Assembly: GCA_031388865.1 (NCBI GenBank)
Contig: JANMSA010000010.1
Span: forward strand, 1-30,707
Direction of reading: 5' to 3'
DNA from: Acidobacteriota bacterium
Lineage (GTDB): Bacteria > Acidobacteriota > Thermoanaerobaculia > Gp7-AA8
Length of the DNA: 30,707 nucleotides
Shown: positions 1 through 28,029 of the stretch, one piece after another
How positions within the stretch are numbered: position 1 is the first letter of the stretch
Layout: every line of letters starts with the position of its first letter
Notes under the pieces: model-generated
Seen by the model: only the letters and a program-made list of their open reading frames with translations
Databases searched by the model: none
Told to the model about the DNA's origin: nothing
Position numbers and translations under genes: made by a program

Positions 1-2
1 AC

Positions 3-377
3 ACGGCAACTTCTTCGGGCGCGAAGACGAGCAATTACGGGAGCCAGCGAGACAACGTGACCACGGTAAATAGCGGTCAGTACTACCCCAAGAATCTGAT
101 CTCGATTCCGGGCGACCGTCGTAGAACCGAAGGTCGGATTCACGCGACGCAAAAGCCCGTCGCGCTCATGGAGTACCTCATCCGCACCTACACGAATGAG
201 GGTGAGACGGTTCTCGACAACACGATGGGAAGCGGAACGACCGGCGTCGCATGCGTTCGCACGAAGCGCAACTTCATCGGGATCGAGATGGATGAGAAGT
301 ACTTCGAGATCGCGAAGAAGCGGATCGAAGACGAACTGCGGAACCAACAGCCATCACTTCTCGACGAAGCTGCGTGA
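3..377 (+). CDS. Site-specific DNA methyltransferase (N4/N6 family, phage-type), 3' part; 5' end lies outside the window
   Basis: Frame is open from position 3. HATQKPVALMEYLI followed by VLDNTMGSGTTGVA (SAM-binding motif I) and FIGIEMDEKYFEIAKKRI is the typical C-terminus of beta-class N4/N6 methylases. Confidence 0.9.
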   Translation, partial: TATSSGAKTSNYGSQRDNVTTVNSGQYYPKNLISIPGDRRRTEGRIHATQKPVALMEYLIRTYTNEGETVLDNTMGSGTTGVACVRTKRNFIGIEMDEKYFEIAKKRIEDELRNQQPSLLDEAA

Positions 378-398
378 TTCGCCGCCTTTGACGCGTTG

Positions 399-421
399 GA
401 CCTAGCACGCGACCTAGCACG
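399..421 (+). repeat. Tandem 11-bp direct repeat GACCTAGCACG (399-409, 411-421); candidate integrase arm-type binding sites
   Basis: Exact repeat with 12-bp period, about 85 bp upstream of the tRNA fragment. Confidence 0.55.
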
Positions 422-504
422 AACCGTTTCTCGGGCACTGCATCGGGAACGAACGCCAATCAAATCAGTGCTTTGCGATTTTGAGATGTTCCGTAGCTCC
501 TACA

Positions 505-550
<46 letters not shown>

Positions 551-576
551 ATCTGAATCAGGAAGCAGCCCAACTT

Positions 577-599
577 AGCCCGCGAAAGCGGGCTTTTTT
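577..599 (+). terminator. Rho-independent terminator downstream of the tRNA fragment
   Basis: AGCCCGC-GAAA-GCGGGCT hairpin followed by TTTTT. Confidence 0.9.
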
Positions 600-608
600 G
601 ATTGATCC

Positions 609-785
609 GACGTCGGCCTGCTCGCGGAGGAGTACCACCCCGCGGCCCGCCGCCATCTCGAGAACTTCCCTCAGGCGTTCTCCCATGCCGGCCTGATCAC
701 CACTGCGCTGAACCAGCGCCGGGAAGACGGGCCGGCGCACGACCGCGCGAATGCAGGTCGGGCGGGCGGAGCCCGCCGCCGCTGA
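609..785 (+). pseudogene. C-terminal remnant of a glycoside hydrolase family 15 (glucoamylase/trehalase-like) gene
   Basis: Manual translation DVGLLAEEYHPAARRHLENFPQAFSHAGLITTALN matches the GH15 C-terminal motif (xGLLxEEYDP...GNFPQAFSH). There is no start or upstream part. Confidence 0.75.
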
Positions 786-843: not shown

Positions 844-871
844 TTGACCACGTTCCCGCCCTCTGCATACT
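844..871 (+). promoter_or_regulatory. Possible sigma70-type promoter for the multicopper oxidase operon
   Basis: TTGACC (844-849), 16-nt spacer, CATACT (866-871), about 210 bp upstream of the start. Confidence 0.3.
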
Positions 872-1082: not shown

Positions 1083-4000
1083 ATGCCCATCGGTCGTTCC
1101 CTACGCGCACGCACGTTCACCTTCCTGATCGTTCTCATTGCCCTGCTGCTGCCGTTCGCTACCCACGCGCAGAGCGTGTTGCCAATCGGCAACGCGCTCT
1201 GCGCGCGGGTCGTCCAGGCCGACATCGTGGCGCTCGATCAGCCCTGGTTCTGGAACCGCCTCGGCGCGGTGGAGCCGCAAGGCATGATCTTCGCGCTCAG
1301 GCGCGACGTCGTCTCGAACAACGGGACCCCCGGCCTCGTGGCCGGCAACGTCCAGCTGCGCTCCGACAAGCGCCCCCGCCCGCTGGCGCTGCGCATGAAC
1401 GTCGGCGACTGCCTGCAGATCAACTTCACCAACCTGCTCGCGCCGACGCCCGTGCACAAGGACCAGCCGGCCACGCGGACCGCGTCGGTCCACGTGATCG
1501 GGATGCAGCTCGTCGACAGCATCGCTTCCGATGGCTCCAATGTCGGCAACAACGTGAGCAGCCTGGTCAAGCCGGACGGCTCCGCCGTCTACAAACTCTA
1601 CGCGGAACGGGAAGGCGGCTACTTCCTCTACAGCGCCGCGGCGACGACGGGCGGGGAAGGCAGCGGCGGCACTCTGGGCGCCGGACTCTTCGGCGTGGTC
1701 AACGTCGAGCCGAAAGGCGCCGAGTGGTATCGCAGCCAGGTCACCAAGGACGATCTGAAGTACGCGACCATCGGCATGACCAAGGACGGGCACCCGATCC
1801 TCAACTACAAGGCGGTCTATCCGGCCGGACACAAATTCGCGGCGCTTCCGGTCCTGGCGATGCTGCATGAGGGAAGGATCATTCATTCCGATCTGACGGC
1901 CGTCATCACCGGGCCGGACGCCGGGCGCCTGCCGGCCGGGACGTATCCGAAGAACCCGGTGGAGCCGGATCGGGAACAGCCCTTCCGTGAATTCGCGGTG
2001 ATTTATCACGACGAATTCGGCGCCGTGCAGGCCTTCCCTGAGTTCGAAGACCCGCAACTGAAATACACGCTGCATGGAGTGCGCGACGCGTTCGCGATCA
2101 ACTACGGAACCGGCGGCATCGGCGCCGAGATTCTGGCCAACCGCTTCGGCGTCGGCCCGGTCGCGGACTGCACCGAGTGCAAGTACGAAGAGTTCTTCCT
2201 CAGCTCCTGGTCGCTCGGCGACCCGGCCATGGTGGTGGACGTCCCGGCGAACGCGCCGTGTACGCCGGCGCAGCTCAAGCAAGGCATCCAGTGCATCAAG
2301 CCGGGGATGAAGGCGACCAAGGCTTTCTATCCCGACGATCCGTCGAACGTCTATCACAGCTACCTGAGCGACCACGTCAAGTTCCGGATCGTGCACGCGG
2401 GGCCGAAGGAGCATCACATCCATCACCTTCACGCGCACCAGTGGCTGCACACGCCGGACAGCGATGAGTCGGCGTACCTCGACAGCCAGGCGATCGGACC
2501 GGGAGCCTCGTTCAATCTCGAGATCGCGCACGGCGGCAGCGGCAACCGCAACCAGACCATCGGCGACTCGATCTTCCACTGCCACTTCTATCCCCACTTC
2601 GCCATGGGCATGTGGTCGTTATGGCGCGTCCATGACGTGTTCGAGTCTGGAACGCAGCTCGGCGACGATGGCCGACCGGCCTTCGGCTCGCGCGCTCTTC
2701 CCGACGCAGAAATTCTGACAGGCACTCCCATCCCGGCCGTCGTGCCGATGCCGACCATCGCCATGGCGCCGTTGCCGGAAGCGACGGCGACCATCGTCAA
2801 TGGCCAGGTGCAGATCACCGGAGTGGGCAATCCCGGCTATCCGTTCTTCGTTCCCGCGGTGGCCGGCCACCGCCCGCCGCATCCGCCGCTCGACACGGTC
2901 GACGACGGCGGCTTGCCGCGGCACAACATCGTCGGCGGGACGTTCACCGAGCAGCACACCCGTCTCGATTTCGACAAGGTCCTCGTCACCGCGGATGCGC
3001 GGTTCATTCCTGAGACGGGTACGAAGGTCGAGCTGGAGGCGATGGCGTTTCACGCGATCCGCAATCACGCGAGCTTCACCCCGGGCGGCGCGGTGGCGAC
3101 TTTCATCACCAACGGTCTGCCGCCGGCGCCGGGCGCGCCTTTCGCCGATCCCTGCATCACCAGCGACGGTCTGGCGACCGGAACCCCGCGTACCTACAAG
3201 GCCGCCAACATCCAGCTCGACATCAAGTTGAACAAAGCGGGGTGGCACTTCCCGCAGCAGCGCATCCTGACGCTATGGGGTGACGTCGACGCAACGCGCA
3301 ATGGCACGCGGCCTCCCGAGCCGTTCTTCTTCCGCGCGAACACGGGCGACTGCATCACCTACCACCACGCGAACCTCGTTCCGAACGTCTACGTGCAGGA
3401 CGATTTCGAAGTGCGCTCACCGACCGACATCATGGGGCAGCATATCCATCTGGTGAAGTTCGACGTGCTGGCGTCCGACGGGTCCGGCAACGGCTTCAAC
3501 TATGAAGACGGCACGTTCTCGCCCGACGAAGTGATCGAGCGCATCCACGCCATCAACGCCTTCGGTGGCGCGCTCGACCTCGATTCCGTGCGCAGGAAGC
3601 TCGCGCCGAAACCGCATCCCTATTTCGGTACCCTTGGCGCGCAGACCACCATTCAGCGCTGGTACGCCGACGACGTCGTCAACAACGGCGGCGACGACCG
3701 GACCCTGCGCACGGTCTTCACCCACGACCACTTCGGCCCCTCCACGCACCAGCAGGTGGGTCTTTACGCCGGACTGGTCATCGAGCCCAAAGGATCGAAG
3801 TGGCGCCATTCAGAGACCGGCGCGTTCTTCGGCGGGCGCTTCGACGGCGGCCCCACGAGCTGGCGCGCCGACATCCTCACCCCCAACGCCGACGACAGCT
3901 ATCGCGAGTTCCTGCTCGAGTTCGCCGACTTCCAGTCGGCCTATTGGCCTGACGGCAAGCCGGTCAATCCTCCGAACAAGAAAGAAGCCGGTCTGCCGTT

Positions 4001-5894
4001 CCTCGTGGAAGTGGCCAACCCCTGTCCCATCAGCGGTCAAATGGCGCCGTGCCCGGAGGCGATCAGCGCCGCCGATCCCGGAACGATGGTCGTGAACTAC
4101 CGCAATGAGCCCATCGCTCTGCGCGTGCAGAACCCCGTCACCAATACCCAGACACTCGGACCGGGGGGCGACCTGTCGTACGTGTTCCGCTCCGACGTCC
4201 CCCGCGCCAACAAGAATCTCAACCTTCCGGGACCCTATCTGCCGCTGACTGGCGGGGTCGCGGCCGGCGACCCGTACACGCCGCTGCTGCGCGCGTATGA
4301 GGACGACCGCGTGCAGATCCGCATCATGGTCGGCGCGCACGAAGAGGGGCACAACTTCGCAGTCAACGGCATCAAGTGGCTCTTCGAGCCCTCCGATGCG
4401 AACTCCGGATACCGCTCCTCGCAGATGATGGGCATCTCCGAGCACTTCGAGTTCATCGTGCCGGCACTGCCGAAAGAGGGTGTGGGCGCGTTTGCCGACT
4501 ATCTCTACACGCCCGGACGCTCCGTTGAAGACATGTGGAACGGCCTGTGGGGAATCATGCGCGCGTACGGCAACAACCAGTCGGACCTGTTGCCGCTGCC
4601 GAACAACCCGCCCGGCGGGAAGGTGATCACCAACATCGGCGACTTTACCGGCGTCTGCCCGAAGACTGCGCCGGCTCGGAACATCGACATCACCGCCGCG
4701 CTGGCGACCAACATCCTCGCTGACCAGACCCTGATCTACAACCACCGTACGAATCAGGGCGGGATCCTCCACGATCCGACGGCGATCCTCTTCGTTCGCA
4801 CCAACGAGATCGGCCTCGACGGCAAGATGATGAAAGGGTTCAAGCCCGAGCCCCTCGTCCTCCGCGCCAACGCGGGCGACTGCATCAACCTGACTCTCCG
4901 GAACACGCTGCCGGAGAAAGCTCCCGATCTGGCGGGCTACAGCGCTCTGCCGATGATCGTGGAGTACTTCAACATGAACCAGGTCGCCCCGTCGAGCACG
5001 GTCGGCCTTCATCCGCAGCAACTCTTCCTCGACGTCACGCGCAGCGACGGGCAGGAGGTCGGCTTCAATCCGTCACAGACGGCGATGCCGGGGCACACCG
5101 TCACCTATCAGTGGTACGCGGGTGATCTGCAGATTGGTCCTACCGGCTTCGCCACCCCGCGGCCGATCGAGTTCGGCGCGACCAATCTTCTGTCGTCCGA
5201 TCCGATCAAGCACAGCGGCAAGGGCGCGATCGGCGCCTTGATCATCGAGCCTCAAGGCTCGAAGTGGATCTCGGATGCAGGCTCGCACGCCGCGGCTACG
5301 GTGTTTACCGCGTCCGGCGAGACCATCCGCGACTTCGCGGTCGTGTTCCAGAACGACGTCAACCTCCGGTACGGCTTCGACGGGTCGGCGGTGAAGACGA
5401 TCGCTGAGGAAGACGACGCCGAGGATACCGGGCACGCGGCGGTGAACTATCGCACCGAGCCGATGTGGAAGCGCATGAACTATGCGCCCGAGACCCCGTT
5501 CGAGGTCACGCGCACGTTCGACTTCACCAACGCGCTCTCGAACCTGCAGACCGGCGGCGATCCTGAGACTCCGGTGTTCGTCTCGGGCCGCGGCGTGCCG
5601 ACCCGCTTCCGTCTGGTCCAGCCGGGCGGCCATGCGCGGAACAACGTCTTCACTCTCCACGGCCATGCCTGGTACGAAGAGCCCTACGTCAAGAACTCGA
5701 CCGTGCTGGGCTTGCGCCCGGAATCGGAGCTCTTCGGAGCGATGATGGGAGTCGGTCCCTCCGCGCATTTCAACATTCTGCTCAAGAACGGCGCGGGCGG
5801 CTTGTTCGGCGTCCCTGGCGACTATCTCTTCCGCACCTTCAGTTCCTTCCAGTTCGACGGCGGCATGTGGGGGCTCTTCCGTGTCACCCCGTAG
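1083..5894 (+). CDS. Large secreted multicopper oxidase, MnxG-like (candidate Mn(II) oxidase), 1603 aa
   Basis: RBS GAGGAG at 1071-1076 and Sec signal ending THA|Q. Copper motifs HIHHLH (2415-2432), HCHFYPHFAMGM (2577-2612), HIH (3441-3449) and HDH (3723-3731). Repeated cupredoxin-like domain starts (LRMNVGDC, FRANTGDC, LRANAGDC). Confidence 0.9.
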   Translation: MPIGRSLRARTFTFLIVLIALLLPFATHAQSVLPIGNALCARVVQADIVALDQPWFWNRLGAVEPQGMIFALRRDVVSNNGTPGLVAGNVQLRSDKRPRPLALRMNVGDCLQINFTNLLAPTPVHKDQPATRTASVHVIGMQLVDSIASDGSNVGNNVSSLVKPDGSAVYKLYAEREGGYFLYSAAATTGGEGSGGTLGAGLFGVVNVEPKGAEWYRSQVTKDDLKYATIGMTKDGHPILNYKAVYPAGHKFAALPVLAMLHEGRIIHSDLTAVITGPDAGRLPAGTYPKNPVEPDREQPFREFAVIYHDEFGAVQAFPEFEDPQLKYTLHGVRDAFAINYGTGGIGAEILANRFGVGPVADCTECKYEEFFLSSWSLGDPAMVVDVPANAPCTPAQLKQGIQCIKPGMKATKAFYPDDPSNVYHSYLSDHVKFRIVHAGPKEHHIHHLHAHQWLHTPDSDESAYLDSQAIGPGASFNLEIAHGGSGNRNQTIGDSIFHCHFYPHFAMGMWSLWRVHDVFESGTQLGDDGRPAFGSRALPDAEILTGTPIPAVVPMPTIAMAPLPEATATIVNGQVQITGVGNPGYPFFVPAVAGHRPPHPPLDTVDDGGLPRHNIVGGTFTEQHTRLDFDKVLVTADARFIPETGTKVELEAMAFHAIRNHASFTPGGAVATFITNGLPPAPGAPFADPCITSDGLATGTPRTYKAANIQLDIKLNKAGWHFPQQRILTLWGDVDATRNGTRPPEPFFFRANTGDCITYHHANLVPNVYVQDDFEVRSPTDIMGQHIHLVKFDVLASDGSGNGFNYEDGTFSPDEVIERIHAINAFGGALDLDSVRRKLAPKPHPYFGTLGAQTTIQRWYADDVVNNGGDDRTLRTVFTHDHFGPSTHQQVGLYAGLVIEPKGSKWRHSETGAFFGGRFDGGPTSWRADILTPNADDSYREFLLEFADFQSAYWPDGKPVNPPNKKEAGLPFLVEVANPCPISGQMAPCPEAISAADPGTMVVNYRNEPIALRVQNPVTNTQTLGPGGDLSYVFRSDVPRANKNLNLPGPYLPLTGGVAAGDPYTPLLRAYEDDRVQIRIMVGAHEEGHNFAVNGIKWLFEPSDANSGYRSSQMMGISEHFEFIVPALPKEGVGAFADYLYTPGRSVEDMWNGLWGIMRAYGNNQSDLLPLPNNPPGGKVITNIGDFTGVCPKTAPARNIDITAALATNILADQTLIYNHRTNQGGILHDPTAILFVRTNEIGLDGKMMKGFKPEPLVLRANAGDCINLTLRNTLPEKAPDLAGYSALPMIVEYFNMNQVAPSSTVGLHPQQLFLDVTRSDGQEVGFNPSQTAMPGHTVTYQWYAGDLQIGPTGFATPRPIEFGATNLLSSDPIKHSGKGAIGALIIEPQGSKWISDAGSHAAATVFTASGETIRDFAVVFQNDVNLRYGFDGSAVKTIAEEDDAEDTGHAAVNYRTEPMWKRMNYAPETPFEVTRTFDFTNALSNLQTGGDPETPVFVSGRGVPTRFRLVQPGGHARNNVFTLHGHAWYEEPYVKNSTVLGLRPESELFGAMMGVGPSAHFNILLKNGAGGLFGVPGDYLFRTFSSFQFDGGMWGLFRVTP

Positions 5895-7830
5895 CCATCT
5901 GTTCCTCGTCTCTCTTCTCGTGGCAGCGCTCCTTGGGGGCGCTGCCACGGCGCGCGCCGCCGATGCGGCGGTCAAGGCCGGCGTCGTGATGCAAAAGGTC
6001 GTTCGCGACGGCGTCTCCATCGAGTTTCTCCCTTCCTCTGGTGGTGCCGGAGAGATCCGTCCCGATCCGATGGAAGGAGAGAACGTCGAGCTTCGCTTCT
6101 GGGTTCGCGGTGCGACCGGCGAGCGGCTTGCCGGCATCAAGCCCGCCGCATGGATCGACGCACGCGCCGGCAAGGCGGGTGCGGCCTCCGGAACGGCCGA
6201 CTGCAAGGCGAAGGTTCAGTCGTTCATCTCCGGCACGCTTCGCGCGCGTCCGCAGGTCGATCTGAATTCGTACTTCATCCTCGCGCTCAACGCCGAGCCG
6301 GTCATCTCCGTCATCGACCCGATCCTCGGCTTCGGCGGCAGCCGCCTCTATACCGACATCCGTCTCCCGAGCCCCGGCTTCGACTGGGTGCTGACGCGGG
6401 ACCAGAAGCGCCTCTTCGTGGCCATGCCGATCATCAACCAGGTGGCCGTCGTCGACACCGACTCGTGGAAGGTGACCAAAACCATCGACGTCGGTCCCAA
6501 ACCGACCCATCTCCTCATCTCCCCTGACGAGCAAACCCTCTGGGTGGCCAGCCAGAATGCCGATGCCACCGCCCCATCGCTTACGGTCATCGACGTGAAG
6601 ACTCTCGCGGTGGCTGCGTCGTTGCGAACGGGCCGCGGCCCGCATCGTCTGGCCTTCGCGGCGGACAGCACCGTCGTCGCGGCGACCAACGGCGGTGAAG
6701 GCACGGTCACGCTCATCGACGCGACGACGCTTCGTGCGGTCAAAGATCTGAAGAGCGGCCCCTCGCCGCTGGCCATCGCCGCCTCCGCGCTCAGCGGCGT
6801 GTTCTACGCGGGCGACACTGTCGACGGCTCCATCTCCGTCATCGATCCCGCGAAGCACACCATCGTCTCGAGAATGAAGGCGAAGCCGGGATTGACGACG
6901 ATCCGCTTCGCGCCCAACGGGCGATTCGGCTTCGTCACCGTTCCGGGCGCCGACGTCGTTCAAGTGATCGATTCCTCGAACGCCTCCATCGTGGCCACCA
7001 TCGACGTCCCGAAGACGCCCGATCAGGTCACCTTCACCGAGTCGTTTGCCTACGTCCGCTCGGCCGGCGCCGATCACATCACCATGATCCGGCTCGCCGA
7101 GCTCGGCGCGGGGATGAAACCGAACCTGGTCAGCTTTCCGGGTGGGCAACTCCCGCCGGCCGTCGCGAAGGTCGAGGCTGCAGCCGACGCGGTCATTGCC
7201 GCGCCGGAGTCGTCCGCGGTGATCGTCGTCAATGCGGCGGACAAGCTCATCTACCACTATGAAGAGGGGATGGCCGCCCCGATGGGGAACTACCAGACCT
7301 ACGGCCGGACGCCGAAAGCGGCGCTGGTGGTGGACCGGAGTCTCCGTGAGACCGGACCGGGCGTGTTCTCCATCAAGACGCAGGTCCCCGCGGAGGGGAT
7401 GTACGACGTGGCGTTCTACCTCGACTCGCCGCGCGTCGTGCACTGCTTCAATCTCGCCGTGCGCGTCAACCCTGCGCTGAAGAAAAGCGCGGCACGCCGT
7501 GTGAGCGTGAAACCGCTGATGACCGATCTGGTCATCCGCGCGAATGAGCCGGTGGCGCTGAAATTCAAGCTCACCGATTCGGAGACCGGCAAGGCGCACG
7601 AGAACCTCAAAGACGTCCGCATCGTCGCTTTCCTCGCGCCCGGAATCTGGCAGCGGCGCGAGATGGCAACCGCTGCCGCCGGCGGGATCTACACCCTCAC
7701 CACTGTGCCTCCCGAGCCGGGCATCTACTACGTCTTCGTCGAAAGCGTGTCGCTCGGCCTCAGGCTCAACGAGCAGCGGCCGCTGATCCTCCAGGCCGTC
7801 GGCATCGAGATCCCAAAGGAGTCCCCATGA
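5881..7830 (+). CDS. Secreted YVTN/YncE-type beta-propeller protein with C-terminal Ig/YtkA-like domain
   Basis: Signal peptide (ATARA|ADAA) and repeated blade motifs (VAVVDTDSWKVTKTIDVG, VTLIDATT, ISVIDPAK, VQVIDSSN). The GTG start overlaps the oxidase 3' end; the exact start is uncertain. Confidence 0.85.
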   Translation: MSPRSHLFLVSLLVAALLGGAATARAADAAVKAGVVMQKVVRDGVSIEFLPSSGGAGEIRPDPMEGENVELRFWVRGATGERLAGIKPAAWIDARAGKAGAASGTADCKAKVQSFISGTLRARPQVDLNSYFILALNAEPVISVIDPILGFGGSRLYTDIRLPSPGFDWVLTRDQKRLFVAMPIINQVAVVDTDSWKVTKTIDVGPKPTHLLISPDEQTLWVASQNADATAPSLTVIDVKTLAVAASLRTGRGPHRLAFAADSTVVAATNGGEGTVTLIDATTLRAVKDLKSGPSPLAIAASALSGVFYAGDTVDGSISVIDPAKHTIVSRMKAKPGLTTIRFAPNGRFGFVTVPGADVVQVIDSSNASIVATIDVPKTPDQVTFTESFAYVRSAGADHITMIRLAELGAGMKPNLVSFPGGQLPPAVAKVEAAADAVIAAPESSAVIVVNAADKLIYHYEEGMAAPMGNYQTYGRTPKAALVVDRSLRETGPGVFSIKTQVPAEGMYDVAFYLDSPRVVHCFNLAVRVNPALKKSAARRVSVKPLMTDLVIRANEPVALKFKLTDSETGKAHENLKDVRIVAFLAPGIWQRREMATAAAGGIYTLTTVPPEPGIYYVFVESVSLGLRLNEQRPLILQAVGIEIPKESP

Positions 7831-8399
7831 ATCCTCGCCTGCAGCTCTCCATGCTCGTCGTCCTCGTTCTCGTCGTCGCGCCCCTCGGCGCGGCGACGCA
7901 GGCCTTCCAGCCGGTCATCCCCGACGTCCCGGTGTTGACGCAGGACGGCAAGAGCGTCCGCTTCTACTCCGACCTGGTGAAGGGAAATACGGTCGCCGTC
8001 AACTTCATCTTCACGAACTGCAAGACCATCTGCCCGATGCTCGGCGGCATGTTCACGAATCTGCAGAAACAGAACGGGCGAGGCGTGCGGATGATCTCGA
8101 TCAGCATCGATCCGACCGTCGATACGCCGCGCCGGCTCAAGGAGTGGGGAGCGAAGTTTCATCCGGGACCGTCCTGGATCTTCGTCACCGGGAAACAGGC
8201 CGACATCGACCAGATCCTGAAGGGGCTCGGCGTCTACACCTCCCGGCCGCAGGACCATCTGCCGCTGACCATCATCGGCAGCGACGTCACCGGCACCTGG
8301 ACGCGCAACTACGGATTCCTCAGCGGACCGGAGCTCGCGAAGGTCGTGACGAAAGTGAACGGCGGCGCCGCGCAGACGACGGCCGGAGGCGGCCGATGA
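7827..8399 (+). CDS. SCO family (Sco1/SenC) copper chaperone
   Basis: Signal peptide, FIFTNCKTICP (CxxxC) and distal His (QDHLP). ATGA overlap with the upstream gene. Confidence 0.9.
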   Translation: MNPRLQLSMLVVLVLVVAPLGAATQAFQPVIPDVPVLTQDGKSVRFYSDLVKGNTVAVNFIFTNCKTICPMLGGMFTNLQKQNGRGVRMISISIDPTVDTPRRLKEWGAKFHPGPSWIFVTGKQADIDQILKGLGVYTSRPQDHLPLTIIGSDVTGTWTRNYGFLSGPELAKVVTKVNGGAAQTTAGGGR

Positions 8400-8947
8400 T
8401 TCGCATCGCCACGATCGCTCTTCTCCTGCTGGCTCTTCCCGTGGCCGCCTCGGACCTTCCCACCGCGGGACGCAACTACTTCACCGACCTCGCGCTGACC
8501 AACCAGAACGGCGAGAAGATGCGCCTCTACAGCGATCTGATCGCTGGAAAGACGGTGGTCATCAACACCTTCTTCTCGACCTGCGTCGGGATCTGTCCGA
8601 TCATGGCCGCCACCTTCACGCGCATCCAGAACAAGCTCGGCGACCGCCTCGGGCGCGACGTCATCCTCATCTCCATCACCGTTGATCCGGAGACCGACAC
8701 GCCGGCACGCCTGCGCGATTACGCGAAGAGCATGTCGGCGAAGCCGGGCTGGTATTTCGTCACCGGCAAGAAGAAGAGCGTCGAAGAGGCCCTGGCCAAG
8801 CTCGGCCTGCGCGCCGCCTCGAAGGAGGAGCACACCTCGGTGATGATCATCGGCAACGAGCCGAAGGGCGTCTGGAAGAAGGCGTTCGGCTTGGCGAATT
8901 CCGAGGACATCGTGAAGATGGTCGAAGACGTGGCGGCGGGGAAATGA
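8396..8947 (+). CDS. SCO family copper chaperone, second paralog, 183 aa
   Basis: ATG at 8396 overlaps the upstream TGA (ATGA). Signal peptide, FFSTCVGICP (CxxxC), LISITVDPETDTP and distal His (EEHTS). Confidence 0.9.
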   Translation: MIRIATIALLLLALPVAASDLPTAGRNYFTDLALTNQNGEKMRLYSDLIAGKTVVINTFFSTCVGICPIMAATFTRIQNKLGDRLGRDVILISITVDPETDTPARLRDYAKSMSAKPGWYFVTGKKKSVEEALAKLGLRAASKEEHTSVMIIGNEPKGVWKKAFGLANSEDIVKMVEDVAAGK

Positions 8948-10413
8948 AGCGCTTCGCCGTTGCGCTTGCGCTCCTCGTCGCGGGCACGGCCTGGGCGGCA
9001 GCGCCACTCACTCCCGAGGAAAAGCGTGGACGGAAGATCTACCTTCACGGTGACGGCGCCACCGGCCCGATGGCGGCGTTCTTCGGTGCGGACGATGCAG
9101 GCGAGATCAACGCCAGCGTCGTTCCCTGCTCTTCGTGTCATGGTGCGGACGGACGCGGCGTTCCCGAGGGCACGGTCGCACCGTCCGACATCCGCTGGAG
9201 CGTTCTCGCGAAACCGTTCGTGTGGGCCGATGGCGCCCGCCACCGCCCGCGCTATGACCAGGCGCTGCTCACTCGCGCCGTTCGTGGAGCCATCGACGCC
9301 GCCGGCACGCCGCTGTTCGCGGTGATGCCGCGCTACCGCATCGACGAGCCCGATCTCGTCGATCTGCTCGCCTACATGCGCAGGCTGGGCAACGAGCCGC
9401 AGCCGGGGCTCGAAGACGACGCGATCGTGATCGCAACCGTCGTCCCGCTCTCCGGTCCGCGCGCCCCCTCCGGCGAGGCGGCGCGCCGCGTGATCAGCGG
9501 CTACTTCGCCGACGTCAACGAACAGGGCGGTCTGTTCGGCCGGCGCCTGAAGCTCGAGGCCATCGACGCCGTCGCGCCGTCGGAAGACATCGCCGCCGCT
9601 CTCGGCGGTCCGATCTTCGCCGTCGTCGGCGCTTCGTGGGCGGGCGGCGATCCAGCGCTGGACGATCTGATCGCCGCCGAGCGCATCCCGCTGGTCACGC
9701 CGTTCGCGAACGCAGTGGAGAGCCGCTCCGCGGTGAGCTCGTTCTACCTGTTTCCCGATCTCGAGAGCCAGACACTGGCGCTGATCGATTTCGCCGCGGA
9801 GCGCGCCGGCAAGACCGCGATGCGCATCGCGCTGGTGCACGACGGGTCGAAGGTGGCCGAAGGCGCTGCCGATACCGCGTCGCGGCACTGCGCGTCGATC
9901 GGCTGGCCGGTGACGACGAATGCGTCCGAGGATGCGGATCTCCTCCTGGTCATCGGCAACGTCGATGTGTCCGCGCTCGCGGCGACGACGAAGACTCCGC
10001 AGATCCTGATCGCCGGAGCGTCGGTGACCCGATCGTTGTTCGACCTGCGCGGGAAGAAGGTGTTCGTCGCCGTTCCCACGCTGCCGGGCGACATGACCGG
10101 CGAGGGGAAGGGGGAGATCGAATCGTTCGCGATGCGACACCGGCTCAGCCCCGCCCACCGCGCCGCCGAGGTGGCGGCATACGCGTCAGTGAAGGTCTTC
10201 GTGGAAGCGCTGCGCCGCGGAGGCCGCGACGCCACGCGCGAGAAAGTCATCGCCTCGCTCGAGCGCCTCTACGGGTTTGTCACCGGCGTGACGCCGCCCA
10301 TCACGTACGGCCCAAGCCGCCACGTCGGCGCCGTCGGCGCCTACATCGTCGAGGTGGACTTCGAGCGCAAGACATTCGGCCCCGCCAGCCCCTGGATCAC
10401 GCCGGAGCAGTGA
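8944..10413 (+). CDS. c-type cytochrome domain fused to a type I periplasmic binding protein (LivJ-like) domain
   Basis: Signal peptide, CSSCH heme motif, candidate axial Met in VMPRY, then PLSGPRA...INEQGG-like LFGRRLKL segment characteristic of Leu/Ile/Val-binding proteins. ATGA overlap. Confidence 0.85.
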   Translation: MKRFAVALALLVAGTAWAAAPLTPEEKRGRKIYLHGDGATGPMAAFFGADDAGEINASVVPCSSCHGADGRGVPEGTVAPSDIRWSVLAKPFVWADGARHRPRYDQALLTRAVRGAIDAAGTPLFAVMPRYRIDEPDLVDLLAYMRRLGNEPQPGLEDDAIVIATVVPLSGPRAPSGEAARRVISGYFADVNEQGGLFGRRLKLEAIDAVAPSEDIAAALGGPIFAVVGASWAGGDPALDDLIAAERIPLVTPFANAVESRSAVSSFYLFPDLESQTLALIDFAAERAGKTAMRIALVHDGSKVAEGAADTASRHCASIGWPVTTNASEDADLLLVIGNVDVSALAATTKTPQILIAGASVTRSLFDLRGKKVFVAVPTLPGDMTGEGKGEIESFAMRHRLSPAHRAAEVAAYASVKVFVEALRRGGRDATREKVIASLERLYGFVTGVTPPITYGPSRHVGAVGAYIVEVDFERKTFGPASPWITPEQ

Positions 10414-10479
10414 TCCGTGGGGGGGGGTGCATCACGTAGGATTCACGTGTCTTCCCGCGGTCATTTTAGAAGGGAAACA

Positions 10480-10518
10480 GACGACCAGGACGTTGGATCC
10501 GCCAACGTCCTGGTCGTC
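10480..10518. terminator. 17-bp perfect inverted repeat between convergent genes; likely terminator
   Basis: GACGACCAGGACGTTGG-ATCCG-CCAACGTCCTGGTCGTC, followed by TGTTT on the minus strand. Confidence 0.75.
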
Positions 10519-10535
10519 CCGGAACGGCTCAACGA

Positions 10536-11040
10536 TCAGTCGTCCCCGTCGTCATCATCGTCGCCTTCGACCTCGATGGTTTTGGCGAGCAGGCTTCCGT
10601 TGCTCTGCTCGAAGGCGTCGACCTCGACCTCCTGTCCGGGCCGCAGGTCCGCAAGTGTGCCGCGGCGGTCATCGATCATAACGACCGTGTCGGTATCGAC
10701 CGTCACAATGACATTGCCCTCGTCGGTCCGGATGGTGAGCTGACTACCGGCGATCGCGGTGATGCGGCCTTCGATCTCGACGCTCTCATCGTCGCCATCG
10801 CCATCGTCGTCCTCATCCTCGATCTCGATGGTGATCGCGAGCAGGCTTCGGTCGCTCTGCTCGACGGCATCGACCTCGACCTCCTGTCCGAGCCTCAGGT
10901 CTGCAACGGTGCCGCGGTGGTCATCGATCATGATGACCGTGTGGGCATCGACCGTCACGGTGACATCGCCCTCGTCCGTGCTGATGGTGACGCGACTGCC
11001 GGCGATCGCGGTGATGCGGCCTTCGATCTCGACGCCTTCA
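10536..11040 (-). repeat. Intragenic tandem duplication with 252-bp (84-aa) period
   Basis: GTGATGCGGCCTTCGATCTCGACG occurs at 10759 and 11011, and the last two protein repeats are near-identical. Confidence 0.85.
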
Positions 11041-12317
11041 TCATTGTCATCGCCATCGTCGTCCTCATCCTCGATCTCGATGGCGACCGCTTCGAGCGAG
11101 CCATCGGGACCACGGCGGGCCACGATCTCGACCTCATCACCTGTCTTGAGCCGCGAGAGGTCGAGAATCGAGTCATCGCCGCGGATGATCGTCGTAGCCG
11201 TCACCCAGATCGTGGTATCGAGACCGTTCTCCGCCCGAACCGTCAATTGGGAACCGCTGATCCCGACGATCGTTCCTTCGAGCTCAAAGAAGCGCTCGTC
11301 GTCCGTTTCGATCTCGACCAACAAGGCGGTCCAGCTGTCCGTCGCGGTTGCCTGAACCGTCGCTTCGACCGCGTCGCCCACCTTCACCTCGGACAGCGAC
11401 AGACGCCGCTCGTCTGAGCGGATCACCGTTTCGGGAAGCACACTCACCGTGAGCTCGGCGCCCGAGCGCGTGCGAATCCGAAGAGAGTCATTGCCGACCG
11501 CGGTGATCACCCCTTCGATTTCATGAAACCCATCGTCGTCAACCTCGATCAGCAGTGCCGTGAGAACATCGCCGGGTCCGCGCAGTGCCTCGATCTCGAC
11601 CTCTGCCCCAACAAAAAGGACACCCGAGGTTGCGGTCGAGTGATCAGCACGGAACCGGGTATCGGGCGTGAGCAGAACCTTGAACGCGGAGCCGTGGCGG
11701 GTCCGTAAGCGGATCGCTCCCGGCTCGACACCGGTGACGACGCCTTCGATCTCCACCGTCTCGAGATCGGCTTCGATCACGAGTGCCACCTCTGCGCCGG
11801 TGGCGTCACGAACCCACTCGACTTCGACGCGCATGCCGGCCGCGAGCGCTGCGAGGGATGTGACGTGATCATCGACGACCACGACTGTCTGCGGGGTCAA
11901 TCGAAGGGTCATCTCACCATGCGGGGTGGTGAGAACCAGTGCGTTGCCGGAGACGCTCTTCACCACGCCGCGCGCATCGCTTTCCGTCTCGATTTCGATC
12001 GCGATCGCGGTATAGACGTCATTCGCATCGCGCTGAAACCGGGCCTCGACTTTGTCGCCGACTTGAAGGACGGCGTCGAGCAGACGGTGGTCGTCCGTGA
12101 AGATCCTGGTCTGAGGCGTGAGCCGCGCCATCAGATCGCCTCGCTTCGCCGTACGAATCGTCACCGAGTCTCGAGAGAGAGCCATGACGACCCCGTCGAC
12201 CTCCTGTGGACCCCCAGCGACCGCACGCCGCCTGCCCCCGCCCGATCCTTCCGCCACGGTGGCGCTCAGAAGGGCCGTGATCATCATCAAAACCATAAAC
12301 AACCGTCTCGAAAGCAT
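10536..12317 (-). CDS. Secreted acidic protein with seven DUF5666-like (OB-fold-type) repeats, 593 aa
   Basis: RBS AGGAG, hydrophobic signal, and seven ~70-85-aa units of the form EIEGxITAI...L.vG..VEV.a......l.A..IEIE. Confidence 0.85.
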   Translation of the reverse strand: MLSRRLFMVLMMITALLSATVAEGSGGGRRRAVAGGPQEVDGVVMALSRDSVTIRTAKRGDLMARLTPQTRIFTDDHRLLDAVLQVGDKVEARFQRDANDVYTAIAIEIETESDARGVVKSVSGNALVLTTPHGEMTLRLTPQTVVVVDDHVTSLAALAAGMRVEVEWVRDATGAEVALVIEADLETVEIEGVVTGVEPGAIRLRTRHGSAFKVLLTPDTRFRADHSTATSGVLFVGAEVEIEALRGPGDVLTALLIEVDDDGFHEIEGVITAVGNDSLRIRTRSGAELTVSVLPETVIRSDERRLSLSEVKVGDAVEATVQATATDSWTALLVEIETDDERFFELEGTIVGISGSQLTVRAENGLDTTIWVTATTIIRGDDSILDLSRLKTGDEVEIVARRGPDGSLEAVAIEIEDEDDDGDDNDEGVEIEGRITAIAGSRVTISTDEGDVTVTVDAHTVIMIDDHRGTVADLRLGQEVEVDAVEQSDRSLLAITIEIEDEDDDGDGDDESVEIEGRITAIAGSQLTIRTDEGNVIVTVDTDTVVMIDDRRGTLADLRPGQEVEVDAFEQSNGSLLAKTIEVEGDDDDDGDD

Positions 12318-12329
12318 GTGTCTCTCCTG

Positions 12330-12366
12330 AAAAAAAAAACGGAAGGCGCAAGGTACGCCTTCCGTT
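12330..12366 (-). terminator. Intrinsic terminator immediately 5' of the RBS of the DUF5666 gene
   Basis: Minus strand AACGGAAGGCG-TACCTTG-CGCCTTCCGTT followed by a further T run, then CAGGAGAGACAC-ATG. Confidence 0.8.
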
Positions 12367-14331: not shown

Positions 14332-14706
14332 AACCCTCTCTCTCGATGCTCCGCCGAGCATCACGCCCAATATACACGCTCCCAAATCGTCCCCATCACT
14401 TGATGGCCTCGGGTGTCATGGAAGTGAGCCGCGGACACCGTCGAGAACTGGACCACTCCACTCTCCAACGAATACCCGGCTCCCACGACGATGAGCCCAT
14501 CATCCTGGAACACTGGCGCAAGGAATCCGCTTCGCTGGCTTCGACGCCGCCGCCACGTTCAGCTGCCGTCTGATCGCCGTGGCCATGATCGCGTGCGCAA
14601 TCCGGTCCAGGCGGCACGACCTCCTGAACAGCTCCGGCAGCGATCGCCTCCTTCGGCATCCCGAAAACGATGCATGTTGCTTCGTCCTGGCCGATCGGCG
14701 CAGCGC
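14332..14706. repeat. Diverged duplicate of 22032-22225 joined to 22588-22770
   Basis: Read-by-eye alignment shows near identity (roughly 14 differences in the first ~195 bp, about 4-7 in the second ~185 bp). The intervening 366 bp are missing at a shared AGGA. Confidence 0.9.
14416..14706 (-). pseudogene. Fused remnants: 3' end of cheB (with 1-nt insertion) and C-terminus of a beta-carbonic anhydrase
   Basis: IGQDEATCIVFGMPKEAIAAGAVQEVVP then a frameshift; QDDGLIVVGAGYSLESGVVQF is the carbonic anhydrase tail. Confidence 0.75.
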
Positions 14707-15075
14707 TGAGCGAGCACATGACCGCTCCCGTCGCCGTAATTAGCGGGAGCAGCAGACTTTCGTGTGCCAGATGTAGTGCTCGTGAGCCACAGCGGACGAT
14801 GTGCCCTCACGAAGGCCAGGCGCCCACCAGAACCTGATGTGGGCAGTTAGTTCGCCCGCGCCTCTGCGCGCTGCGCACAGACAACGACAGCTGAGAACCG
14901 ACAACATCTTTCCAACCGGACACCGACTTGTGCGGAGCGATACTTGGAAGCAGGCGTGATCAGTCACGCCCCACCGTTCCTCTCTCAGCTCGTGGCGCAC
15001 GTGGTGGCGAGCTCGAGTCATGATCGCGATGAATCGATTGCGCGTTTGGAAACGAGGTGCGCTACGTCCCGGGAA

Positions 15076-22269: not shown

Positions 22270-22638
22270 CCTGCCGTACCAGACGATGAAAGACTCCAGA
22301 TCCAACGCAAGCATCAGCAGCACAAAGCCGATGAACCCATCACAGCATTCCTCGCCGACGTGGCCGATTCGCACAATGGACATCGCGGCAAGATCTGTCG
22401 CCCAGCAGCGAACATGCGGATCATCGACGCGATGGACACGATTCGTCCAACAGAGATCGTCGTGCTCCCGATCGTTCACAACGAGGAGCTTTTCGGTGTG
22501 CTGTACGGCGACAACGCGGGACATCAAGCAGCCATCCACATGCCGAGCGGCCTGGAGATCTTTCTGTCGCAGGCCGGATGTGCGCTCAGGAACGCTTTGC
22601 TGGCTTCGACGCCGCCGCCACGTTCCGCTGCCGTCTGA
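22270..22638 (+). pseudogene. C-terminal GAF-like remnant of a DUF4388-type chemosensory-associated protein
   Basis: FLADVADSHNGHRG...TEIVVLPIVHNEELFGVLYGDN...LEIFLSQAGCALRNALL. There is no plausible N-terminus; the 3' end overlaps the cheB 3' end. Confidence 0.55.
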
Positions 22639-23647
22639 TCGCCGTGTCCATGATCGCGTGCGCAATCCGGTCCAGCGGCACGACCTCCTGAACAGCTCCG
22701 GCAGCGATCGCCTCCTTCGGCATCCCGAAAACGATGCATGTTGCTTCGTCCTGGCCGATCGTCGCAGCGCCGGCTTTGCGCATCGAGAGAAGGCCTTTGG
22801 CGCCATCGTTGCCCATTCCGGTCATGATCACTCCGACACCACGATGCCCTGCCGCCTCGGCGACCGATTCGAAGAGGACATCGACACTGGGCCGATGCCG
22901 TGACACCAGCGGTCCATCGTTGACGTTGACCACGTACTCGTCTCCTGAGCGGCGAACGATCAGGTGGCGGTTGCCGGGCGCGATGAGAACACGGCCTGGC
23001 GCCACGCGATCACCGGTTTCAGCCTCCTTGACCTCCATCGCGCAGTCGCGATCGAGCCGTCGCGCGAACGCGGCCGTGAACCCGGCCGGCATGTGTTGCA
23101 CGACGACCGTTCCGGGCGCATCGGAGGGCAGGGCGCGCAAGACCCGCCAGAGTGCTTCCGTTCCTCCTGTCGAGGCTCCGACCGCGACGATCGCATCGGT
23201 TGCCGAGCCCAACGCTGCTTCGGCCGGAACGGATGTGACGTCCGGACGCGAGATCCGCACCCGGGCCGCCGCCCGGATGGCATCGATGAGCAGCACTTTC
23301 GAATCGGTCAGGAAATCGGCAATGCCGACGCGCGGTTTCTCCAGGACCTCGACCGCACCGATCTGGAGCGCCTGCATCGCCTGCTCACCGCCGCGTGCGC
23401 CGAGGCTGGAGCAGACGACGGTCGGGATCGGATGATCCTGTTTCAGATTGCGCAGGAACGTCAGTCCATCCATGCGCGGCATCTCGAGATCCAGAAGGAG
23501 GACGTCGGGTCTCTTCGCGCGGATCTTGGTGGAAGCGATCAATGCGTCCGCTGCCACCCGCACGGCGATGTCGGCCTGGTCGGCGAGCATCGACTTCACA
23601 ACCTGCCGAACCAGAGCGGAATCGTCGATGACCAGAAGATCGATCAT
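22586..23647 (-). CDS. cheB: Chemotaxis response regulator protein-glutamate methylesterase
   Basis: Receiver domain (VIDDS, LLDLEMPRMDG, KP) plus esterase with GASTGG, QHM and GNDG catalytic residues intact. Confidence 0.95.
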   Translation of the reverse strand: MIDLLVIDDSALVRQVVKSMLADQADIAVRVAADALIASTKIRAKRPDVLLLDLEMPRMDGLTFLRNLKQDHPIPTVVCSSLGARGGEQAMQALQIGAVEVLEKPRVGIADFLTDSKVLLIDAIRAAARVRISRPDVTSVPAEAALGSATDAIVAVGASTGGTEALWRVLRALPSDAPGTVVVQHMPAGFTAAFARRLDRDCAMEVKEAETGDRVAPGRVLIAPGNRHLIVRRSGDEYVVNVNDGPLVSRHRPSVDVLFESVAEAAGHRGVGVIMTGMGNDGAKGLLSMRKAGAATIGQDEATCIVFGMPKEAIAAGAVQEVVPLDRIAHAIMDTAIRRQRNVAAASKPAKRS

Positions 23648-23651
23648 CGCG

Positions 23652-24167
23652 TTACCGGCGGCGCTGACGTGCGCTCTCCATCGGTCGGTACTGCACAGAC
23701 GGTAGGACCGACGTTCGGGAGATCGAGCTCATTCCGGCGAGACTCTCCGCGTGCCCAAGAAACAGATAGCCGCCAGGACGGAGCGCGCCGAGAAGGCGCT
23801 TCACTCCCGTCGAGCAACCAGCGCTCCAGATTCGAATGCGATCGGACTTCCGCTCGATGTCCGGCAGGACGACGGTGCGGAAGAAATCGAACTGCCGGAC
23901 ATCGCGGAAGAAGTGCGTTTCGTTCGTGCAGATCGCGTCGATCATCTGCCGCTTTTCATCGCCGTCATCGCGGCCCATGCGGTCGTAGTACTGGCCGAAC
24001 GAGCGGACGCCGAGCGCGCGCATGCGCCGTGACAGCCCCGCGATGAGGAGCGAGCGCCTGGCGGGCTCCAGATGGATGCCCGCCTCCTGCCGGATCAGCA
24101 CCTGCAGGTCTCGGAACCCGGCGTCGGTCACGGCTGTCTCGAAGGCCGCTGTCACGATGGTCCTCAA
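23652..24167 (-). pseudogene. cheR: Chemotaxis methyltransferase with large in-frame internal deletion (171 aa)
   Basis: TNETHFFRD and IWSAGCSTG jump directly to VKRLLGALRPGGYLFLGHAES. The EEPYS, SAM-binding ATDI and CRNVLIYF segments are absent; the junction is near 23804. Confidence 0.88.
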
Positions 24168-25819
24168 AAGCGCTTGAAATCGTGCAGCGAGACTTCCCGA
24201 ACCTGTGCGAAGCCCGCTCCGCCAACCCGTCGGGCCGGCGACGGTGCCGTCCGCGGATAGAGAAGTATCGGTTCCGCAACCGCGTCACCGGTGGAATGGG
24301 CGGCCTCGTTTGCATCGGTTCGAAAGAAGGCAACCAACTGCTGCAGAGCAAGAGCCTGTGAGGACATCTCCTCGGCCGTCGACGCGAGCTCCTCGGCAGC
24401 AGAGGCGTTGCGCTGGGTGACCTGGTCGACCAGCGACATCGCCTTGTTGATCTGCGCCACGCCGGCGGACTGCTCGCTGGACGCGGCTGCCACCTCTTGC
24501 ACCATCTGCGCGGTGACGCGAATCGAGGGGACGAGCTCATTGAGGAGTTGCCCCGAGCGTTCCGCGACGACCAGGCTCGAAGTGGCCAGCGTGCCGATCT
24601 CCTTCGCCGAGACCTGACTCTTCTCCGCGAGCTTGCGCACTTCGGCAGCGACCACGGCGAATCCGCGGCCATGGTCACCGGCGCGCGCAGCTTCGATGGC
24701 TGCATTCAGAGCCAGCATGTTCGTCTGATAGGCGATCTCCTGCACGATCGAGATCTTCTCCGCGATCGACTTCATGGCATCGACACTCTGACGCACGACC
24801 ACGCCCGATTCCTCCGCGTCGTGAGCGCCTTTGAGTGCCCGCTGCTCCATCTGGCGGCTGTTGTCGGCGTTCTGACCGATGGAGGCACTCATCTCCTCGA
24901 GCGATGACGTCGTCTCTTCGACGGACGCCGCCTGCTCGCTCGTGCCCTGCGAGACGGACTGTGAAGTGGCCGAGACCTGGGCGGCGGCCGAGGAAAGGGC
25001 GTTTGCGGACGAGCGGACTTCGCTGATCGTCGTTCGGAGCGAAGTGATCGCGCTGTTGAGCGCTCCGGCCATACGGGCTACCTCATCGTTGCCGGTGATC
25101 TCCAGCTCGGTCGTGAGATCGCCCTGAGCGACGCGCTCGAGGGCGGCCACCATGCCCGCCAGCGGCCGGATCACGGTTCTCGCCGTCGCCGCGCCCACCA
25201 GACTGACGCAGGCCAGAACGAAGACGAAGAAGCCAAGCAGCAACATCGTGCGCGAGCGAATGAGCTGGCGGGCCTGCCCCTGAGACTGTGCAGTCGCCTG
25301 GTTGGCGAGCTGCGTCAACTTCTCGACCGCGCGACGATGGTCGGCGTACTTCGGAGCGAGGTCGCCGTTGAGGACGAGCCGGGCCCGATCGATGTCGCCC
25401 CGCATGAGGGCCGGCAGGAATTCCTTGTCCCGTATCTCGAAGAACTCCATGGCCGGGCGATACGAACCCTTCATGAGAAGCTGGCGGATCTCGCCTTCCG
25501 GAAGCGTTTGCGACCAGTACTGATGCCGGGCTTCGAACGTCTGTCGCAGCGCGCGACCGTGTTTGAGAAGAGCATCCACATCCGTCTCTCCGCTTCCCTG
25601 GAGCATTTCGATGCAGAGGAGATACGCCTCCATGATGTTCTGGGTGGGCGAACGGACGTCGGCCACGAGACTGTTGCCGCGTTTGACGGTCTCGTAGATC
25701 GGCCCGTCGACTTTCACTGTCTTCAGGACGTGATAGGCGACGGAGCCGAAAACCAGCAGGCCTGCGGCGAATGCACCGATCAGGAGAGCGAATTTCAGTT
25801 TCAGGGTCAGCTTCTTCAC
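24164..25819 (-). CDS. Methyl-accepting chemotaxis protein (TM-periplasmic helical domain-TM-HAMP-MA), 551 aa
   Basis: RBS GGAGG before GTG 25819, hairpin tip [38 protein letters not shown] methylation heptads, C-terminal pentapeptide DFKRF. Confidence 0.95.
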
Positions 25820-25835
25820 GGCATGTCCTCCAAGC

Positions 25836-26070
25836 TCAACTGCGGTCAACGTGAACCGGTCGGGGATCTTCGCCCGGCCGTTGAATTGATGATCCATCCG
25901 TGTCGGCAGCCCCCGTGGAATGGGGCTGTTCGATGTCCAGCGTCGCCCGAACGCGATCGACTTCGAGCAGCAGCGTGAACCGAGCACCCGAACATCACCA
26001 GACCGACGAGGGCCTCGGGTGAGACGAGGCGAGTGATCTGATCAACGTATCGTTGGGGTTGTTCAGTCAT
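25836..26070 (-). pseudogene. Deletion fusion of an unidentified gene start ([12 protein letters not shown]) to a frameshifted cheW C-terminal remnant
   Basis: ATGA-coupled start with [21 protein letters not shown] then a frameshift near 25983 to [11 protein letters not shown] (CheW terminal strand). That frame stops at 25836, just before the MCP RBS. Confidence 0.6.
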
Positions 26071-27657: not shown

Positions 27658-27673
27658 AGCAACCGAGGCGCCA
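27658..27673 (-). promoter_or_regulatory. Sigma54 (-24/-12) promoter motif
   Basis: TGGCGCCTCGGTTGCT with GG-N10-GC spacing, directly upstream of the receiver-EAL-receiver-che genes. Confidence 0.55.
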
Positions 27674-28019: not shown

Positions 28020-28029
28020 CGTCGAACGT

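Follow-up and report, generated by a model that had tools for sequence, protein, structure and literature searches.

An mnxG-type multicopper oxidase operon in an uncultured member of the Thermoanaerobaculia (Acidobacteriota)

A stretch of 30,707 nucleotides (nt) from a contig of an Acidobacteriota metagenome-assembled genome (MAG), read on its plus strand and called the window throughout, carries at positions 1083-10413 a five-gene operon that is almost certainly a homologue of the mnxG operon. The five genes encode a multicopper oxidase, a beta-propeller, a pair of SCO1/SenC proteins and a fusion of cytochrome c with a periplasmic binding fold, and it is reasonably probable that they work as a Thermoanaerobaculia mnxG-type operon by the mechanism proposed below, with homology giving a slight lean towards Mn(II) as the physiological substrate. 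The architecture of such operons is already known and is widespread, it is the host lineage that is without experimental study. Manganese oxides control the turnover of trace metals and carbon in soils and sediments, and to our knowledge the enzymes of manganese oxidation have been examined in no more than a few cultured Proteobacteria and Bacillus.

The five genes and their counterparts in Pseudomonas and Bacillus

The preliminary description of this DNA had reported five exported genes with overlapping junctions, and this is borne out when the open reading frames (ORFs), junctions and N-termini are read: the five ORFs are co-directional on the plus strand, each overlapping the next. They are listed here, together with the one complete set of copper ligands in the first product (lengths in amino acids, aa).

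1083-5894, plus strand: MnxG-type multicopper oxidase, 1603 aa, with a Sec-type signal peptide and a ribosome-binding site GAGGAG at 1071-1076; NF041487 at 1434 bits, 9bxa_A at E 1.7e-112
2415-3731, plus strand: complete copper set of the oxidase, the only one, invariant in 91 of 91 relatives
5881-7830, plus strand: YVTN beta-propeller, 649 aa, GTG start, exported as read from its sequence; assigned by Pfam/NCBIfam and a structure model
7827-8399, plus strand: SCO1/SenC paralogue a, 190 aa, with CKTIC at residues 65-69 (nt 8019-8033) and His144
8396-8947, plus strand: SCO1/SenC paralogue b, 183 aa, with CVGIC at residues 63-67 (nt 8582-8596) and His146
8944-10413, plus strand: fusion of a monohaem cytochrome c with a type I periplasmic binding fold resembling LivJ, 489 aa

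The junction between oxidase and propeller, read directly, is a 14-nt overlap of the oxidase stop (5892-5894) with the GTG at 5881, and the three later junctions are ATGA overlaps at 7827, 8396 and 8944. The second SCO gene is taken to start at the ATG at 8396, where its signal peptide begins, and not at the GTG at 8144 given in a mechanical list of ORFs. Purine runs resembling Shine-Dalgarno sequences precede the five starts (GAGGAG, GGGGG, AAGGAG, GGAGG and GGGG). Read from the translations, all five N-termini run from charged to hydrophobic to small residues of the AxA type and none has a twin-arginine motif, therefore the five products read as typical candidates for Sec export. The Pfam and NCBIfam domains along the operon are NF041487 and Cu-oxidase_3, then Cytochrom_D1, YNCE and YVTN, then SCO1-SenC twice, and lastly Cytochrom_C and Peripla_BP_6.

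The closest described parallel in gene order is the putative mnxG operon of Pseudomonas putida GB-1 (PputGB1_2447-2452; IMG 641547570-641547575), which comprises mnxG, a YVTN propeller gene, two successive SCO1/SenC genes, a gene for an ABC-type substrate-binding protein with a cytochrome c domain and a gene for a SurA-domain protein (PMC11409713 Table 4). Genes 1-5 of the window are identical to it in content and order, the oxidase is likewise predicted to be exported by Sec, and the MnxG model is its sole NCBIfam match. Thus NCBIfam, the match to 9bxa_A and the GB-1 gene order all agree with the earlier reading of an MnxG-like oxidase with a self-contained copper-loading set. The window oxidase is however about 340 residues shorter than that of GB-1 (1603 against 1944 aa) with several long-form inserts missing, it falls below the equivalog cut-off and in a sister clade, and its host is uncultured and of a different phylum. 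Calling the operon complete holds for the five core genes but not for the sixth, which is SurA-like in Pseudomonas and a fusion of SurA_N with a DsbA-like domain in Blastocatellia, and which is absent here.

Manganese oxidation has been shown for Bacillus MnxG and, genetically, for that of P. putida. In P. putida a double deletion of mnxG and mcoA abolishes it, and MnxG and McoA are both Sec-exported (PMC13689576). The Mnx complex of Bacillus sp. PL-12 (MnxG with an MnxE3F3 ring, 9bxa) has whole-chain, colinear homology to the window oxidase, with the HxxHxH and HCH motifs lying mid-protein and two HxH motifs following in both. The window oxidase is some 380 residues longer, with inserts between domains, whereas Bacillus Mnx is without the propeller, SCO and cytochrome-binding-protein set, and its enzyme is found on the spore surface and not in the periplasm. 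The mcoA-SCO1 operon of P. putida also has a multicopper oxidase gene followed by a dedicated SCO1/SenC gene, but McoA is a protein of 1131 aa with another arrangement of copper motifs, it is accompanied by a single SCO and by neither propeller nor cytochrome fusion, and the window oxidase matched the MnxG model only.

The oxidase, its relatives and its substrate

The single NCBIfam match of the oxidase is to the Pseudomonas MnxG equivalog NF041487, at 1434 bits. This match is colinear from end to end of the 1894 positions of the model (1-588, 692-785, 818-1404 and 1465-1894), the gaps in it being inserts specific to the long form of the enzyme, and Pfam adds only a marginal match to Cu-oxidase_3. 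When phmmer is run against the Protein Data Bank (PDB), Bacillus MnxG (9bxa_A) is found at E 1.7e-112 and 380 bits, in five colinear stretches over the whole chain. The motif series HxxHxH, HCHxxxHxxxxM, HxH and HxH is present, and in an alignment with 77 short-form and 14 long-form relatives the ligands of the type-1 copper (H445, C500, H505 and M510) and of the trinuclear cluster (H448, H450, H499, H501, H787, H789, H881 and H883) are invariant in all 91. Four cysteine pairs are invariant in the alignment too and are probably disulfides. The later domains have conserved histidines and no second blue site containing a Cys. The oxidase is an MnxG homologue of the six-domain type with one complete type-1 and trinuclear copper set.

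In the oxidase tree (MAFFT, FastTree with LG+gamma, 1496 columns) the short-form enzymes of about 1600 aa and the long-form enzymes of about 1900 aa are reciprocally monophyletic, with a support of 1.0. The window oxidase branches outside the clade of the Pseudomonas-type long form, which is represented in the tree by proxies and by no genuine Pseudomonas sequence, the comparison with Pseudomonas being based on the NCBIfam model and on published tables. This long-form clade holds a gammaproteobacterial protein reaching 2414 bits against the MnxG model as well as Myxococcota, Geobacteraceae, Rokubacteria and others. To that gammaproteobacterial protein, of 1938 aa, the window oxidase is 51% identical over 1534 positions, and to its closest relative it is 78% identical. 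Clustering away from MnxG-type enzymes, which the preliminary description had raised as a point to be checked, was not seen.

The family is large, with more than 4000 clusters at 90% identity matching the oxidase, many of them labelled 'copper oxidase' or 'manganese oxidase'. Hundreds of MAGs of Acidobacteriota bear these automatic names, and a metagenomic survey has already described MnxG from an Acidobacteriota MAG (PMC13439051), thus the earlier statement that the lineage has no characterised example is true of experiments but not of annotation. In contigs of GTDB, taken as one genome per species, there are 580 matching stretches. A survey of synteny bears out a shared layout: at about 40 of the best 79 loci, including Acidobacteriota MAGs, the propeller and the two SCO genes are present, in most cases along with the cytochrome fusion and nearly always in the order of the window, the remainder of the 79 being mostly truncated at contig ends or additional paralogues of the oxidase. 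Among the carriers are Thermoanaerobaculia, Blastocatellia, Pyrinomonadaceae, a Methyloversatilis MAG, Jettenia and Methanoperedens, and the same five genes in the same order occur in Acidobacteriota, Myxococcota, Pseudomonadota and an anammox planctomycete. The cultured long-form carriers Anaeromyxobacter oryzae and Archangium gephyra (L095, L096) share this order and keep the CxxCH and MPRY motifs of the cytochrome.

The distribution of the oxidase is patchy, with a match in only 7 of 300 other genomes of the phylum, evenly sampled, and in two of five in the family of the window. The genes flanking the window operon are neighbours of the module in no relative examined, therefore the five genes travel as a unit. 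Oxidases of the short form that are 57-60% identical and full-length are present in Methanoperedens nitroreducens (L048, L065) and Jettenia ecosi (L070), the former with only the oxidase and a distant propeller and the latter with the whole accessory set, and the presence of the gene in an anaerobic methanotrophic archaeon and an anammox bacterium, odd for an enzyme that depends on O2, suggests horizontal transfer. An even sample of 400 genomes from the class of the Methyloversatilis carrier gave one long-form gene, on a contig ending inside the propeller gene, and a protein search seeded with that long-form protein returned no Pseudomonas entry among the best 120.

There is variation on the common layout. 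In clusters of the Pyrinomonadaceae type two small conserved genes lie between oxidase and propeller (L034:5334-5765, L046:6485-6814), one encoding about 140 aa of no family and the other about 90-110 aa with DUF5659; such genes are also found in a second copy within the MAG (C235:1203-1861), whilst the compact operon of the window is without them. They were considered as MnxE/MnxF-like and rejected, there being no sequence match to the 9bxa chains. The Blastocatellia-type sixth gene encodes a protein of about 500 aa with SurA_N and a DsbA-like thioredoxin domain. The MAG offers for it only weak matches to the thioredoxin domain (25-31% identity), on two further contigs and not adjoining any fragment of an MnxG-like cluster. 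Some relatives (P0034, P0036, P0042, P0062, P0075 and P0088) have an oxidase extended by 200-1100 residues of PKD, FN3, Big or TolB-like propeller domains, which hints that the extended oxidases may lie at the cell surface. In one locus (L010) tandem oxidase genes precede the propeller, and in another (L015) a three-domain multicopper oxidase with a Tat signal is inserted before it.

Several observations weigh against the operon being a manganese oxidase system of the described kind. The oxidase, at 1434 bits, does not reach the equivalog cut-off of NF041487 (3100 bits), and it lies in a short-form clade, mostly of Acidobacteriota, from which a long, fully supported branch parts the long form, therefore the transfer of a manganese substrate to it is an extrapolation. 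We know of no member of the short-form clade that has been assayed and of no organism in which the accessory genes have been tested. Among the carriers of close relatives are anaerobes, strict or nearly so (Methanoperedens, Jettenia and Geobacteraceae), a poor fit with an oxidase that needs oxygen to act on manganese. Unlike Bacillus Mnx, the window operon has no small genes resembling mnxE or mnxF, and as all its junctions overlap there is no room for them. Unlike GB-1, it has no sigma-54 site upstream of 1083 at up to two mismatches, with matches across the whole window at or below chance, and no MnxS1/S2/R-type regulator genes beside this copy, the genome elsewhere not having been searched for them. 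Even in P. putida, neither MnxG nor McoA has been biochemically characterised (PMC13689576).

The substrate is uncertain because the cut-off is unmet, the clade is that of the short form, some relatives are anaerobes and six-domain copper oxidases elsewhere act on iron. It is thus possible, though rather unlikely, that the same machinery serves another substrate, as a ferroxidase, a cuprous oxidase or a polyphenol or humic oxidase in the periplasm or at the surface, for metal detoxification or for attack on organic matter, with manganese oxidised incidentally if at all. Ceruloplasmin and multicopper oxidases of six domains like it are ferroxidases, the family is present in the metal-reducing or anaerobic Geobacteraceae, Anaeromyxobacter, Methanoperedens and Jettenia, and the solute-binding fold encoded by the last gene is similar to those of proteins that bind amino acids, fatty acids or aromatic acids. 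The low conservation of that binding domain, and its partial deletion in some relatives, however speak against a precise small-molecule ligand. In the loci examined the module is not accompanied by genes for transporters, aromatic catabolism or iron uptake, and the sole relatives tied to a substrate by experiment, the MnxG proteins of Bacillus and P. putida, are manganese oxidases.

Accessory proteins and the proposed mechanism

The propeller, in a structure model with a predicted local distance difference test score (pLDDT) of 85, is a seven-bladed YVTN beta-propeller flanked by immunoglobulin-like (YtkA-type) sandwiches. It has a motif EGMAAPMG at nt 7264-7287 that is conserved as EGMxAPMG in relatives. 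A fold search gives generic matches only, with 1l0q as the top PDB entry and with archaeal S-layer YVTN-PKD protein, hydrazine synthase beta, NosZ, NirN/NirF and YncE among them.

Both SCO proteins match Pfam PF02630 (E 5.5e-18 for the first and 2.8e-19 for the second) and retain, on a thioredoxin fold, the CxxxC motif and the distal copper-binding histidine (CKTIC with H144 and CVGIC with H146). First and second SCO genes form two orthogroups, each of which spans both oxidase clades, and together with the shared gene order this indicates that the SCO duplication and the five-gene layout predate the split of short and long forms. A complex prediction for the two mature SCO proteins, run with no controls, scored 0.00 and is evidence neither for nor against their binding. 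Natural fusions tie the accessory proteins together functionally, as far as gene structure can tell: propeller, the heavy-metal-binding domain HMBD and SCO lie in one frame in two loci, confirmed by Pfam (L039:15929-18445 and L047:5933-8452), the same fused frame runs uninterrupted in a third (L050), and SCO-SCO tandem fusions are found in six loci of several lineages (L011, L015, L016, L022, L049 and L070).

A likeness can be drawn to the metallation of CuA in cytochrome oxidase and N2O reductase by Sco and PCuAC, where a periplasmic SCO with CxxxC and a histidine also serves a Sec-exported copper enzyme, and the propeller model of the window resembles the propellers of NosZ, NirN and NirF. 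The target here is however a blue multicopper oxidase, with two SCO genes inside its own operon, and there is no PCuAC or NosL gene in the operon. The preliminary description held that manganese oxidation in Pseudomonas depends on SCO-type and propeller genes, which is an overstatement, as it is said only that the SCO genes 'may function as copper chaperones' (PMC13689576).

The cytochrome fusion has its haem-binding CSSCH at nt 9127-9141 and a Met128 within MPRY. These motifs, as CxxCH and MPRY, are invariant in all 22 aligned fusions and are kept in the long-form clade too. The model (pLDDT 86) shows a LivJ-like type I binding fold for which a search finds only generic LivJ-type binders, and conservation of this fold is far lower than that of the haem domain, part of it having been lost in some relatives.

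If the operon oxidises Mn(II), as is favoured here, the following sequence of events can be proposed. The oxidase would cross the membrane unfolded via Sec, and its four catalytic coppers would therefore have to be inserted in the periplasm. The two SCO paralogues, anciently diverged, would deliver copper or act as thiol/copper reductants, and the propeller may be a scaffold or copper-handling partner since it is fused to HMBD and SCO in relatives. Once loaded, the oxidase would accept electrons one at a time at its type-1 copper, from Mn(II) and Mn(III), and would reduce O2 to water at the trinuclear cluster, with Mn(III/IV) oxide being deposited. The fusion of cytochrome c and binding protein would be a redox partner, for which no direction of electron flow is assigned. 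In Pseudomonas, mutants in cytochrome c maturation (ccm) lose manganese oxidation for reasons unknown (PMC13689576), and it is plausible that the operon cytochrome explains this loss.

The same cytochrome could be given a larger role, with electrons passing from the oxidase or the mineral via cytochrome c to the respiratory chain to provide lithotrophic or maintenance energy. The invariant CxxCH and MPRY motifs would fit with this, as would the ccm phenotype, the induction of cytochrome oxidases by manganese in one Pseudomonas strain (PMC13689576) and the presence of the module in organisms with little access to oxygen. Such energy conservation is nevertheless very unlikely, since the trinuclear site that reduces O2 is kept complete, the module has no linked genes for quinol or cytochrome oxidases, a monohaem domain tethered to a binding-protein fold has no known route to the membrane, and growth on Mn(II) is without evidence for any carrier.

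Host genome, neighbouring sequence and wider meaning

The MAG has 6.25 Mb in 1157 contigs, with a completeness of 96.9% and a contamination of 5.1%. Its RecA is 94-96% identical to those of Thermoanaerobaculia MAGs, and in the oxidase tree the window lies within a Thermoanaerobaculia subclade, beside a Thermoanaerobaculia MAG. What had been described as a probable acidobacterium is thus confirmed, by these sequences, as a member of the Thermoanaerobaculia. The public runs that contain the operon are freshwater-sediment metagenomes, in four of which contigs cover it about ten-fold with no indel within the five genes. Of the 25 strain variants listed, 20 are synonymous, including all five in the oxidase, and this and the lack of indels give direct support for purifying selection on the operon, in line with the earlier reading of intact genes under selection.

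The boundaries of the operon and the candidate signals near it are as follows.

577-594, plus strand: terminator-like hairpin with a T-run, closing an upstream unit that has a DNA methylase fragment at 3-377 (Pfam N6_N4_Mtase)
844-871, plus strand: weak sigma-70-like promoter candidate TTGACC-16-CATACT, at chance level
10479-10519, no strand assigned: 18-bp perfect hairpin between the operon and a convergent DUF5666 gene, marking the operon end

A leader of about 490 bp separates the first hairpin from the oxidase start, and the region upstream of the operon is not conserved in comparison with the closest relative (L009). The hairpin at the far end and the convergent gene there delimit the unit, which is therefore of exactly five genes with no sixth. 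The convergent gene (10536-12317, minus strand) encodes seven DUF5666 repeats and has a weak N-terminal CusF-like match (E 2e-4, below cut-off); as a member of the module it was rejected, for despite the common hairpin it is a neighbour in no related locus.

At the left end of the window (1-667) the summed word depth of contigs is 350-700, against about 10 elsewhere, in all four runs, with loose ends at 505 and 773. This end, with the DNA methylase fragment and what follows it, is a repeated or widely shared element, and only from position 525 onward is there support for its join to the operon. To the right of the operon a truncated CheR of 171 aa lies between an intact CheB and a methyl-accepting chemotaxis protein (22586-25987), with only the first 43 of the 195 profile positions of its S-adenosylmethionine-binding domain matched, a CheB fragment lies at 14396-14719, and a 136-aa ORF (27704-28114) holds an HTH_8 (Fis-type helix-turn-helix) remnant of a sigma-54 activator with nothing else kept. 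A sigma-54 consensus with one mismatch (27658-27673) adjoins this remnant. All four runs have an extra A after 14443, inside the CheB-like ORF 14396-14719, and some have single-base indels against the window at 12330, 14610 and 15987, so that the apparent decay may in part be assembly error or strain difference. The decaying neighbourhood of the preliminary description, for which some of the claims were checked, is therefore upheld in part, by the CheR, CheB and HTH_8 remnants.

The MAG also has fragments of at least two further MnxG-like clusters on short contigs (C723, C235, C775, C538, C573, C694 and C686). A second oxidase (C723 and C235) is 54-56% identical to that of the window, a divergent one of 33% identity is followed by a propeller (C775), and a set of SCO, SCO and cytochrome fusion is found on C573. 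The assembly is probably broken at these clusters by paralogy, and given a contamination of 5% some of the fragments could come from another organism.

That the operon is a silent or decaying copy, a recently acquired island gene set that is either unexpressed or being lost like several genes near it, could be argued from the CheR, CheB and activator remnants, the unconserved flanks, the promoter no better than chance and the further copies, but it is scarcely credible beside five intact frames with coupled junctions, the lack of indels and the mostly synonymous variants in the four metagenomes, and the retention of all catalytic and cofactor-binding residues.

The locus on its own adds little that is new in kind, and its significance lies in the comparison with the many operons related to it. 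These show the mnxG operon of Pseudomonas to be a single branch of a module of five genes that is conserved across at least five bacterial phyla and that sediment and soil Acidobacteriota often carry in several copies. The four accessory genes are conserved as strongly as the oxidase, and the accessory proteins, notably the SCO pair and the cytochrome fusion, are therefore a worthwhile target for experiment. A bolder statement, that the module is an ancient, horizontally moving unit whose invariant cytochrome subunit links MnxG-type metal oxidation to cellular electron flow, is improbable as it stands. If it were true, the Thermoanaerobaculia and other Acidobacteriota with multiple copies would be important and unrecognised oxidisers of Mn(II), possibly gaining energy at oxic-anoxic interfaces in sediments, and the operon cytochrome would also explain the long-standing dependence of manganese oxidation on cytochrome c maturation.

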